Source of the DNA: Candidatus Stahliibacteriota bacterium
GTDB taxonomy: Bacteria > Hydrothermota > Tepidihabitantia > SM23-42
Direction of reading: 5' to 3'
Length of the DNA stretch: 64,000 nucleotides
Assembly: GCA_030609135.1 (NCBI GenBank)
Contig: JAUWCU010000003.1
Location: forward strand, 55-64,054
Below the pieces are notes generated by a model. The model saw nothing but the letters and a program-made list of their open reading frames with translations, made no database searches and was not told the DNA's origin. The translations under genes were made by a program, and so were the position numbers. Below are positions 61,619 through 64,000 of this stretch, piece after piece; within the stretch, counting starts at the first letter, position 1; each line of letters starts with the position of its first letter.

Positions 61619-62038
61619 TTAGGTAGATTCTAAGTAATTTACAATTGCTTGGGCAAAGCTATTGAAATCAGCTAATTGATTCTGTAGGATATCATAAACC
61701 TGATTGGGATCAGTATAAAGATAATTATGCACTAAAATGTTTCTAAAACTAACCATACCTTTAATTTTCTTAATCAATTCTTCTGGCAACACGCCATTTT
61801 TGCCTAAAACAACAAAGATATTTTCCTGTTCATCTGGCACTAATAGATTTTGTCCAGCAATAATGTAATTAGCAATGTCAATACAGGTTTGCATAGCTAC
61901 CTGAAAATTTCTTTCAGCAATATCCTGGTAATCTTGATTATTGGTATATTCATCCTTTGATATTCGTTGAATTCTTTTCAGCCTTGATACGGCATGATCG
62001 AGTTTTTTTAATCGCACCTCAATAACCTTTTTATCCAA
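61619..62038 (-). CDS. hepT: HepT-like ribonuclease toxin (DUF86, RX4HXY motif)
   Basis: 139 aa; FRNILVHNY matches the Rx4HxY catalytic motif. Overlaps mntA by 8 bp. Confidence 0.8.
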   Translation of the reverse strand: MDKKVIEVRLKKLDHAVSRLKRIQRISKDEYTNNQDYQDIAERNFQVAMQTCIDIANYIIAGQNLLVPDEQENIFVVLGKNGVLPEELIKKIKGMVSFRNILVHNYLYTDPNQVYDILQNQLADFNSFAQAIVNYLEST

Positions 62039-62453
62039 TGCCTACCTCTTTGATTTTTTTCTTTAAATACCTTGAATGAAACTCAAAATATTTCTTATAA
62101 TCGTAATACAATCCCATTGAATATGCTTGGAATAGCGCCCTTTTGTTTTCATCTTTCTCATAAATTAATTGTCCCTTTTCAAAAACCTGGGCCCTTAAAA
62201 GTAGATTTGCAAAGTTCAAAATTACAAGGTCAACTTTTCCTTTTAATAGCTCCATTAAATCTGTACTAAGATTCATTCGATAGAACAGTGGATTCTCTAT
62301 TTTCTTTTCATTAATCAATAGCGCGATATCAATGTCACTATCTTTTCTTTGTTTCTTTTCAACTACTGAACCAAATAAATAAGCCGAATAAATTTCAGGT
62401 TTTGTAGTAAAATATTTCCGGAGTTTTTCAGTTATTTCCAGTTGGAATTTCAT
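62031..62453 (-). CDS. mntA: MntA-like minimal nucleotidyltransferase antitoxin
   Basis: GSVVEKKQRKDSDIDIAL matches the GSx(n)DxD nucleotidyltransferase motif. The promoter TTGACT-16-TACAAT lies 6 nt upstream (leaderless). Confidence 0.8.
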   Translation of the reverse strand: MKFQLEITEKLRKYFTTKPEIYSAYLFGSVVEKKQRKDSDIDIALLINEKKIENPLFYRMNLSTDLMELLKGKVDLVILNFANLLLRAQVFEKGQLIYEKDENKRALFQAYSMGLYYDYKKYFEFHSRYLKKKIKEVGIG

Positions 62454-62510
62454 AAAGAAATTGTATTCAATTTAATAGTGAAGTCAAGGTAGAACCCACA
62501 TTCTATTTAG

Positions 62511-62598
62511 ATTTTTTTTGATAATATCTGTAATATTTGAATAAAAGATGGGATTAATATCTTTCAAGGAGGATTTTTGGGCGATCAATGATACGTTA
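62511..62598. repeat. about 85-bp direct repeat, copy 2 (see 61421-61500)
   Basis: See copy 1. Confidence 0.65.
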
Positions 62599-62661
62599 TG
62601 ATTCAATTGGTTCTTTGATAGAGCGGCAATGATCATAATGGTTGGGATGATATGTTACATG

Positions 62662-62819
62662 TAACTGTTCAATTTTCGGTGGAAACTTGTAGTTGCGACA
62701 TTTATGGCGCATATTTGTTTTAAATTTCAAGACATTTTGCACGATGAATCGTGCGACTACACCCCGCCATTTTGTAAAAGAGCGGGGTACATTAGTCCAC
62801 CAAGTTTTGAACAGTTACT
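62662..62819. mobile_element. MITE-like element E (copy 2, 158 bp), immediately upstream of the abiEi promoter
   Basis: The TIRs TAACTGTTCAATTTTCGGTGGA / TCCACCAAGTTTTGAACAGTTA and the internal GTAGTTGCGAC...GTGCGACTACA are conserved with copy 1 (21192-21319). It carries an extra CCCCGCcattttgtaaaagaGCGGGG hairpin. Confidence 0.65.
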
Positions 62820-62827
62820 GTTGTCTC

Positions 62828-62855
62828 TTGACATAGATTCCATATTCTGTATAAT
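62828..62855 (+). promoter_or_regulatory. sigma70-type promoter TTGACA-16-TATAAT for abiEi (21-nt leader with GAAGAAGGG)
   Basis: TTGACA at 62828-62833, TATAAT at 62850-62855, ATG at 62877. Confidence 0.5.
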
Positions 62856-62876
62856 TTTATACAGAAGAAGGGAACT

Positions 62877-63458
62877 ATGAAGGCGATAGAAATAATCCAG
62901 AAAATCGGCAGGTTAAACTGCCGGGTTGTGAGTATCCGCGACCTCGCGAAATTGACCAATACATATAATGATAATACTCTTTATAAAATCGTAGAAAGGT
63001 TGATAAAAAACGGGATTCTCACACGAATAGCCCCTGGTTTATATATGCGAAGTGACAACACTCCGGAATCGTTCGAGATTGCAAATGTACTCTATGGACC
63101 ATCATATGTTTCCCTTGAATCGGCCCTTTATCGATACGGAGTCATTGCCCAGGCACCATACACTATTACATCGGTGACACCACGAAAAACAAAGAAGAAA
63201 ACAGTTTTTGGTCATGAATATGAATATGTACACCTGAATCCAAAATTTTTTTTTGGATATATACGTGATAAAAATATCCTCATTGCTGTTCAGGAAAAAG
63301 CATTACTTGATTTGCTATACCTCGTTTCAAAAAAGACACGAAGTATTAACTTAAATAACCTCGATTGGACCACAGTACGGAAGAACGTGTTTAATAGATA
63401 TGCACGATTATATAAATACAATCCACTGGCTCATTTGATTAAAAGGATTAGACCGTGA
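62877..63458 (+). CDS. abiEi: AbiEi-like antitoxin/transcriptional regulator (type IV TA / abortive infection)
   Basis: 193 aa with an N-terminal winged-HTH (RDLAKLTNTYNDNTLYKIVERLIKNGILTRIAPGLY) and an AbiEi_4-like composition. The stop overlaps the GTG start of the downstream AbiEii-like gene. Confidence 0.65.
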   Translation: MKAIEIIQKIGRLNCRVVSIRDLAKLTNTYNDNTLYKIVERLIKNGILTRIAPGLYMRSDNTPESFEIANVLYGPSYVSLESALYRYGVIAQAPYTITSVTPRKTKKKTVFGHEYEYVHLNPKFFFGYIRDKNILIAVQEKALLDLLYLVSKKTRSINLNNLDWTTVRKNVFNRYARLYKYNPLAHLIKRIRP

Positions 63459-64000
63459 TTGAACGAAATGTGGTTACTGAATATGCACGCAGATTTGACA
63501 TAGATGAATACACCGTGCTCCGAGAATACCTTCAATTGATTTTCCTGCGTAATCTTTATGATATTTCCGAATGTAATCATCTGTATTTTAAAGGCGGCAC
63601 TAGTATTCATTTTTTGCTACACTCATTTCGGTTTTCAGAAAATCTGGATTTTACAGCAAGAATTAAGCAACAGAATATAGACAGAATAATTCAATTGGCA
63701 ACAAAGAAAACACGTTTGGAAGCGCCTGATCTGAAGGTAGAAACACGATCTTCTACACGATTATCATCTTCCTACCGATTGATATTTCCTACAGAACTGT
63801 CGCGCCAGCCACTTACAATTCGCGTTGAGATTTCTACCCGGGAAAAGCCTTTGACAAGACGGATAAGTGTTATTGAAACTGAATTGCCTGTTTCACCCTA
63901 TCCAATGGTTGTACACCTCGATTACGAGGAGATCCTTGCAGAGAAAATCAGAGCCATGCTTACACGTTCACAAGGACGTGATATATTTGATACATGGTTC
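63455..64000 (+). CDS. abiEii: AbiEii/AbiGii-family nucleotidyltransferase toxin (DUF1814), partial; continues beyond the window end
   Basis: Translation from GTG 63455 gives VIERNVVTEYARRFDIDEYTVLREYLQLIFLRN...YFKGGTSIHFL...; FKGGT is the hallmark motif of DUF1814. Confidence 0.65.
   Translation, partial: MIERNVVTEYARRFDIDEYTVLREYLQLIFLRNLYDISECNHLYFKGGTSIHFLLHSFRFSENLDFTARIKQQNIDRIIQLATKKTRLEAPDLKVETRSSTRLSSSYRLIFPTELSRQPLTIRVEISTREKPLTRRISVIETELPVSPYPMVVHLDYEEILAEKIRAMLTRSQGRDIFDTWF

Follow-up and report, generated by a model that had tools for sequence, protein, structure and literature searches.

Two toxin-antitoxin operons in a probable closed insert at the 5′ end of mglB in an uncultured Stahlbacteria-type genome

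HepT-MntA toxin-antitoxin (TA) systems combine a ribonuclease toxin with a minimal nucleotidyltransferase, MntA, which poly-AMPylates a tyrosine beside the Rx4H RNase site of HepT and thereby keeps the toxin inactive. In AbiE and MenAT systems, enzymes of the AbiEii/MenT type add nucleotides to tRNA 3′ ends, which blocks charging, and AbiEi acts both as a repressor of the operon and as an antagonist of the toxin. Members of both families stand side by side at the 3′ edge of the stretch analysed here, i.e., 64,000 nucleotides of contig JAUWCU010000003.1 (the window) from a Candidatus Stahliibacteriota bacterium with a WOR-3/Stahlbacteria-type genome: hepT-mntA on the minus strand is followed by abiEi-abiEii on the plus strand, from position 61619 to the window end. 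We consider it probable (about 80%) that this region is a closed insert of approximately 2.9 kb at the 5′ end of mglB, which comprises two known TA operons and is bordered on its left by wzz. Both gene pairs are additional members of known TA families, found in an uncultured lineage.

Proteins were compared with the Pfam, NCBIfam (curated cutoffs) and PADLOC profile libraries and with solved homologues from the PDB, and RNAs with Rfam. L-numbers denote contigs of related loci from Logan, ENA, JGI and NCBI. Positions relative to mglB are counted from its start, and promoter calls are consensus matches to the −35 and −10 hexamers, with 12 positions scored. The closest genome found is L005, a metagenome-assembled genome of Candidatus Stahlbacteria, whose abiE pair is 97.8% identical to that of the window at the nucleotide level; the same abiE module (96–98% nucleotide identity) is carried by 15 contigs of relatives. 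The Logan contig L001, which is 100% identical to the window, equals window positions 62791–64324 and thus extends 324 bp past the window end. From left to right, the locus would consist of wzz (minus strand), a first mglB remnant, hepT-mntA (minus strand), a second remnant, a miniature inverted-repeat transposable element (MITE) and abiEi-abiEii (plus strand), with an intact promoter and mglB-mglA-dnaE following past the window. Its main features are:

60111–61346, minus strand: wzz/GNVR chain-length-determinant-like gene, 411 aa (Pfam GNVR 1.7e-8, Wzz 1.7e-4), left boundary of the island
61405–61523, plus strand: mglB remnant 1, −36 to +83 (promoter and first 83 nt), 88–89% identical to the functional mglB 5′ ends of L005/L006
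61619–62038, minus strand: hepT, HEPN-domain RNase toxin, 139 aa (PF01934 7e-31; NF047751 HepT_toxin 129.7 bits)
62031–62453, minus strand: mntA, minimal nucleotidyltransferase antitoxin, 140 aa (Pfam Polbeta 1.8e-24; NF047752 97 bits)
62460–62487, minus strand: promoter-like site of the mntA-hepT operon, TTGACT-16-TACAAT, 10/12, called by consensus match alone
62489–62598, plus strand: mglB remnant 2 (mntA-mglB intergenic region, promoter and first 57 nt), 83–88% identical to mglB 5′ ends
62877–63458, plus strand: abiEi, COG5340-type winged helix-turn-helix antitoxin/repressor, 193 aa (PADLOC AbiEi 8e-33, nearly full length)
63455–64000, plus strand: abiEii, DUF1814 nucleotidyltransferase toxin, codons 1–182 of 252 (PF08843 1.9e-24; PADLOC 7.5e-27)

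A sequence-only reading of this DNA had named the four genes HepT-MntA and AbiEi-AbiEii, which the family matches bear out; it had also stated, correctly, that abiEii is cut by the window end. Of its 252 codons, 182 lie inside the window; the complete gene is present in L001. Like the type VII HepT-MntA systems of Shewanella oneidensis (SO_3166/SO_3165; PDB 5YEP, 6M6U) and Aphanizomenon flos-aquae (HEPN/MNT; 7AE2–7AE9), the first pair is bicistronic, with the antitoxin gene preceding the toxin gene in the same operon and overlapping it, here by 8 nt. HepT scored above the curated cutoffs of PF01934 (106.8 bits; cutoff 23.5) and NF047751 (cutoff 60) and aligned with the solved toxins 5yep/6m6u and 7ae2–7ae9 at E = 1.6e-15. 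Its Rx4HxY motif (R99-NILV-H104-N-Y106) is intact and aligns with RNIAVHDY of the Shewanella toxin, conforming to the conserved pattern RNIxVHxY. MntA likewise scored above cutoff (PF18765, 86 bits; NF047752 MntA_antitoxin, cutoff 60), and the GSx(9-13)DxD motif can be read from its translation as G28-S29...D40-I-D42; in PADLOC, which has no HepT model, its match was to a family of candidate status only. The motifs predicted for a toxin and its AMPylating antitoxin are thus all intact. Unlike the characterized systems, the pair belongs to an uncultured WOR-3/Stahlbacteria lineage, where it is known from its genes, and it is divergent from mglB or an mglB remnant, with the intergenic region common to both.

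The second pair resembles AbiE of Lactococcus and Streptococcus agalactiae and MenAT of Mycobacterium tuberculosis (MenT3, 6Y5U; MenT4, 6Y56) in that a COG5340-type winged helix-turn-helix gene is followed by an overlapping DUF1814 gene (the abiEi stop overlaps the GTG start of abiEii by 4 nt, GTGA, 63455–63458) and in its strong promoter with an overlapping inverted repeat. AbiEii reached 87.4 bits with PF08843 (cutoff 22.5) and matched PDB 4ok0 at 2.4e-6. It differs from other AbiE/MenAT toxins in the nucleotidyltransferase motifs: G47-G48-T49 is present, but motif II reads R59-F-S61-E-N63-L-D65, so that the R-x-S-x-D-x-D motif with both metal-binding aspartates is not complete in the window copy, its first Asp being N63. 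The codon is AAT (63641–63643), whereas each of the nine close homologues has GAT, and Asp is also found here in the solved structures 4ok0 and 6y56. Among 10 close homologues compared, only the window copy carries the substitution. The pair is further set apart by an AbiEi that lies under the Pfam and NCBIfam cutoffs.

Replacement of a metal-binding Asp by Asn is usually inactivating. Residues S61, K164 and D179 of AbiEii align with S67, K171 and D186 of MenT4, and the D80A exchange in MenT3, equivalent to D63 of AbiEii, abolished both toxicity and nucleotidyltransferase activity (PMC7450476). Given D63N and the inactive MenT3 D80A variant, the window AbiEii is probably disarmed; it is a family member by descent in which the substitution probably disables the toxin. 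According to a 2026 preprint (10.64898/2026.01.19.700257), AbiE is to be reclassified as type VII, with AbiEi inducing autophosphorylation of the toxin on the motif-II Ser, which would correspond to S61 here. Among the relatives, both AbiEi and AbiEii are shortened in L115 (8514–9661; 162 and 220 aa), and abiEi is split in L007 (181–758), i.e., the abiE module is decaying in some strains.

The direct repeats that had been described as flanking the HepT-MntA pair do exist (61405–61523 and 62512–62598, repeat family D9). They are not cassette ends: both reproduce the promoter and 5′ portion of the Roadblock/LC7 gene found in L005 (Pfam Robl_LC7 1e-13), which adjoins an Arf/Ras-like GTPase gene and forms with it a pair of the mglB-mglA type. 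In remnant 1, the −35 box reads TTGACT (61407–61412), the −10 box has changed from TATAAT to TGTAGT (61429–61434) and the start codon from ATG to ATA (61441–61443), and a stop follows codon 28. In remnant 2, the −35 and −10 boxes read TTAGAT and TGTAAT, respectively, ATG has likewise become ATA (62541–62543), and the frame is shifted by +1. Both remnants are dead. The homologue of remnant 2 in L021 is a functional mntA-mglB junction, whereas L113 and L114 lack the remnant but otherwise carry the same four genes. In the window, a 5-nt microhomology, CGT(T/A)A, marks the point where remnant 2 meets the abiE unit. On the opposite strand, a 469-aa open reading frame (ORF) for wzz (60111–61520) proved to be an artefact, its first 58 codons being antisense to the mglB remnant; the true start is M59 at 61346, and the wzz orthologue in L105 also has 411 aa.

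Empty-site alleles define the extent of the insert. In the ENA contigs L105 and L107, wzz lies directly beside an intact mglB-mglA pair, and over 5.2 kb (window 56286–61523, comprising a gene for a 348-aa protein, a GxGYxYP gene and wzz) they are 96.6% identical to the window and collinear with it exactly to position 61523. As these contigs continue from there as intact mglB, the whole segment that starts at 61524 and reaches to the following mglB copy represents DNA inserted into the mglB 5′ end. The match between the window and L105 worsens abruptly near −36, where 2 mismatches in ~85 nt give way to ~10 in 50, a pattern consistent with a crossover at that point.

Filled sites occur in several states. 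Remnant 1, hepT-mntA, abiEi-abiEii and mglB-mglA through dnaE to a tricorn protease gene are found on single contigs in L113 and in L114/L115; in L021, L017 and L023, hepT-mntA is located directly and divergently upstream of a functional mglB, and in L005–7 and L116–121 abiE is located directly upstream of mglB. The four-gene block appears in three upstream contexts, next to wzz (window), a sigma-54 response regulator (L113) and a glycosyltransferase family 2 (GT2) gene (L114), and in all three the homology to the window begins near −36 to −21 of the remnant. Independent duplications of the mglB 5′ end around other cassettes were found in L008–10 (−21 to +167), L049 (−43 to +82), L022 and L005. 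The one in L008–10 (e.g., L008 8785–10083), in which a different HepT-MntA pair, 32–36% identical to that of the window, lies between 93%-identical copies of mglB −21 to +167, is an independent event of the same kind. A single ancient event shared by the remnants of the window, L049 and L022 was ruled out, as an identity matrix placed the remnants of L008–10 and L049 closest to the functional mglB of their own genomes. Among 57 loci with at least 76% MglB identity and enough upstream sequence, a sample biased by retrieval, 17 have HepT-MntA and/or AbiE within 3.5 kb of mglB.

The site upstream of mglB also holds other small TA-like genes: a 169-aa PIN-like ORF in L006, L007 and L119 (~2038–2547) and in L049 (595–1104), whose product had no Pfam match in any of the four; a UPF0175 antitoxin-like gene in L021 (8747–9046); and, in L012 (99–555), a small nucleotidyltransferase-like ORF (a weak Pfam RlaP match, below cutoff) together with a partner.

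The sequence-only reading had suggested that additional systems, possibly novel ones, may lie immediately beyond position 64000. A larger island, continuing for another 20–30 kb, might be suspected from the stacking of two TA/Abi-type modules and from L005, L112 and L113, where HicAB and an additional MntA-HepT pair occur in a different context, 5–6 kb upstream of mglB, so that TA genes are common in these genomes. However, in all 15 contigs with this abiE module the genes after abiEii are mglB (Roadblock/LC7), an mglA-like GTPase gene, a gene for a small Zn-ribbon protein, dnaE, and genes for thioredoxin, a TlpA-like redoxin and OsmC, with the tricorn protease gene after OsmC. About 45 loci in the clade retain the mglB-mglA-Zn-ribbon-dnaE block. 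In the abiE-bearing contigs it begins within ~160 bp of abiEii, or ~400 bp in L005 and L114, and ~1.7 kb (up to ~1750 bp) away in L006, L007 and L119, where the PIN-like ORF lies in between. In L001, the 110 bp after the abiEii stop align with the mglB upstream region, and the contig ends exactly at −36 of the mglB promoter repeat; a break of a de Bruijn assembler is expected there, because the sequence starting at this point is now present three times in the genome. The empty-site allele, too, places the insert between wzz and mglB. Core housekeeping genes thus follow abiEii directly in the 15 relatives, and the same is strongly indicated for the genome studied here, so that the suggested continuation did not materialize and a larger island is highly unlikely. 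No further defence systems were found in the neighbouring 10–20 kb: upstream lies a polysaccharide cluster (wzz/wzy/wzx/GT), of which wzz is the last gene and which contains no defence genes, and downstream, in the relatives, mglBA, dnaE, trx, OsmC and tricorn genes. At this locus, PADLOC models recognize AbiE only.

Exact matches to AbiEi and to a neighbouring 727-aa protein were confined to short Logan contigs broken at the repeats, and a contig scan with AbiEii yielded one relative, L005. MglB homologues and cluster members (P0001, P0002, P0142, P0126, P0134, P0121 and P0123) led to many relatives and to the empty-site allele, but to no contig from SRR14876856, SRR14923492 or SRR14923480 that reaches past 64324. 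The NCBI contig L103 (JBARXB010000010) was rejected as a continuation; it begins inside mglB at the repeat and has no sequence in common with the window. In L112 and L113, the context with the sigma-54 regulator, the HicA-HicB genes and a shorter MntA-HepT pair (97 and 114 aa; e.g., L112 910–4118) are located ~5–9 kb upstream of mglB, with a paired histidine kinase and response regulator lying between them and the abiE module.

Repeats of this type can mislead assemblers, and a chimeric join caused by the mglB 5′ repeats would mean that the four genes are true neighbours neither of wzz nor of one another. In the same samples, Logan contigs indeed break at every repeat (L002 and L004 end at 61477, L001 starts at 62791), and remnant 2 was seen in the window only. 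We nevertheless regard an artefact as extremely unlikely: the order remnant 1, hepT-mntA, abiEi-abiEii, mglB was assembled independently in ENA and JGI contigs of 29–51 kb, among them L113 (ENA, 51 kb) and L114/L115 (JGI), and the remnants have diverged from each other (78–88% identity) and have different end-points, hence are not collapsed identical repeats.

As to its origin, the insert was most likely built by recombination rather than by a recombinase, as judged from the junctions. Each insertion would have interrupted mglB close to its start while supplying or preserving a fresh promoter and 5′ end; mglB would thus remain functional, and its former 5′ ends would persist as the "direct repeats". 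One junction would have formed by illegitimate recombination at a microhomology, while homologous recombination within the conserved mglB-dnaE stretch would have provided the anchor on the other side. With a remnant of mglB at one end and an intact copy at the other, the block could then move between relatives by ordinary double crossover, whatever the upstream context; such homologous transfer would explain why the +83 junction recurs in all three contexts. A possible variant would be that a circular intermediate integrated in the Campbell manner.

Homology-facilitated illegitimate recombination and the spread of islets by homologous recombination at conserved-gene anchors are known from naturally transformable bacteria. 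The present insert is similar in being anchored on one side, in mglB-dnaE, with a short microhomology at the other junction, in the retention of the displaced start of the recipient gene as a remnant, and in the occurrence of the block in different upstream contexts. It differs from the process in transformable bacteria in that recombination is deduced here from sequence anatomy only.

A competing explanation is that the TA modules are mobile cassettes that undergo site-specific integration at an att-like sequence in the mglB 5′ end, catalysed by a recombinase encoded elsewhere, and that each carry a surrogate mglB 5′ end in the manner of integrative elements directed at gene ends. It would account for the duplication of the same ~120-nt region around different cassettes in at least four lineages, for left junctions that cluster at +82 to +89 in three lineages, and for the small size of the units (~1.0–1.1 kb between repeats in the window and in L008). 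The positions of the junctions vary, however (+57, +83, +167 and, in L005, −59), with no fixed core, attC-like site or conserved inverted-repeat signature among them, the abiE junction is the 5-nt microhomology, and a single block that was inherited, or transferred by homologous recombination, accounts for the +83 junction common to the three contexts. Within 10 kb on either side, none of the loci examined contains an integrase, transposase or recombinase gene. Neither a tRNA nor an Rfam RNA (E ≤ 0.1) was found near the insert, which rules out an RNA gene or tRNA as the integration target. Evidence against a dedicated site-specific system comes from the microhomology at the junction, from end-points that vary, from the lack of a recombinase and from the retained truncated gene start, and we consider such cassettes quite unlikely.

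Some points nonetheless weigh against the interpretation as a closed insert built by recombination. That mglB comes next in this very genome, although strongly indicated, rests on the 324-bp extension and the synteny of the relatives. The preference for illegitimate plus homologous recombination, over integration of a Campbell-type circle or a trans-acting site-specific enzyme, was deduced from the anatomy of the junctions, and three remnants end at similar positions (+82, +83 and +89), which could hint at site preference. AbiEi remained below the curated cutoffs (Pfam AbiEi_4, 17.3 bits, cutoff 25; NF047376, 63.9 bits, cutoff 150), and the probable inactivation of AbiEii presupposes the usual effect of the Asp-to-Asn exchange.

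A further, speculative possibility is that the mglB promoter and the first ~30 codons serve as a reusable "landing pad" for small TA cassettes in a WOR-3 sub-clade, namely HepT-MntA of two unrelated types, AbiE, the PIN-like gene and UPF0175. The cassettes would enter via circular intermediates (single crossover) or by an unrecognized site-preferring enzyme, and a working mglB start would always be regenerated. We deem this unlikely; if true, it could couple TA expression to the divergent promoter of the mglBA polarity GTPase.

Returning to the closed insert, the region between remnant 2 and abiEi contains the following features:

62599–62656, plus strand: left flank of the abiE unit (TGATTCAATTGG...), common to all abiE-bearing relatives, 95–98% identical in L005, L113 and L114
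62657–62818, no strand assigned: MITE-like insertion, 162 bp, with 23-nt terminal inverted repeats (62661–62683 and 62796–62818)
62828–62855, plus strand: abiE promoter, TTGACA-16-TATAAT, 12/12, the only consensus promoter upstream of abiEi, outside the MITE
62832–62879, no strand assigned: 23-nt inverted repeat, 19/23 complementary (62832–62854 and 62857–62879), covering the edge of the −35 box, the −10 box and the start codon

The MITE is flanked by a TGTT duplication at both ends and contains an internal hairpin (62761–62788), and a second copy is present in the window at ~21187–21318. It had been proposed to supply the promoter of abiE. The promoter begins 10 bp beyond the right terminal repeat, and it is unchanged in L005 (8710–8737) and L114, neither of which has a MITE at that site. 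Since it is situated outside the element and kept in relatives that lack the element, a MITE-borne promoter is unsupported, and a promoter scan upstream of abiEi together with the comparison of MITE-less relatives revealed no contribution of the MITE to the −35 or −10 box. AbiEi of S. agalactiae autoregulates abiE (PMC7450476), and the inverted repeat at 62832–62879 would be a plausible candidate for an AbiEi operator.

The MITE site is empty in L005 and L114, occupied by a shorter variant of the MITE in L006, L007 and L119, and by an unrelated REP (repetitive extragenic palindromic) element of the GATAAATCCCGC type in L113 and L116–120. This presence/absence variation marks the MITE as a genuine mobile insertion at a hot spot for small elements, which is situated ~10 bp upstream of the abiE −35 box (window 62653–62660/62815–62822; L113 8217–8445; L006 1–110). 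The element resembles MITEs and REP-like elements of promoter regions in its size of 162 bp, terminal inverted repeats, 4-bp flanking duplication, multiple copies and site polymorphism, but unlike promoter-inserted MITEs it lies upstream of the promoter, not inside it.

Short hairpin repeats of REP-like families (D3, D5, D7 and D12) are scattered over intergenic regions of the window (2549–2663, 8368–8438, 29630–29700, 32234–32304, 36518–36875, 34235–39080 and 61571–61613), and copies also occur in the loci of relatives. One of them belongs to the island:

61571–61613, no strand assigned: short REP-like hairpin, located past remnant 1 and before the hepT stop codon; one of six copies of repeat family D5 in the window

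Elsewhere in the window, a tandem array at 43569–44784 consists of about six 204-bp units, 76–81% identical, and extends across the gap between the ORFs 42717–43733 and 43948–45069; it may represent a gene for a repeat-domain protein, possibly disrupted.

The importance of the locus is limited, as both modules belong to well-studied families and the additional systems predicted past the edge are not there. It does provide an allele-resolved series, with sites that are empty or hold one or two modules, in which TA operons have accumulated at a core gene's 5′ end while the gene itself survives; the decaying gene starts left in their wake resemble cassette repeats. It also illustrates that TA genes stacked at the edge of a window do not predict a defence island. 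The D63N variant of AbiEii, a toxin that has probably been disarmed naturally and stands beside intact relatives, could be a ready-made control for work on AbiE and MenT. The recurrent insertion at the mglB 5′ end and the probable natural inactivation of AbiEii are, in sum, minor curiosities, the former a real one.

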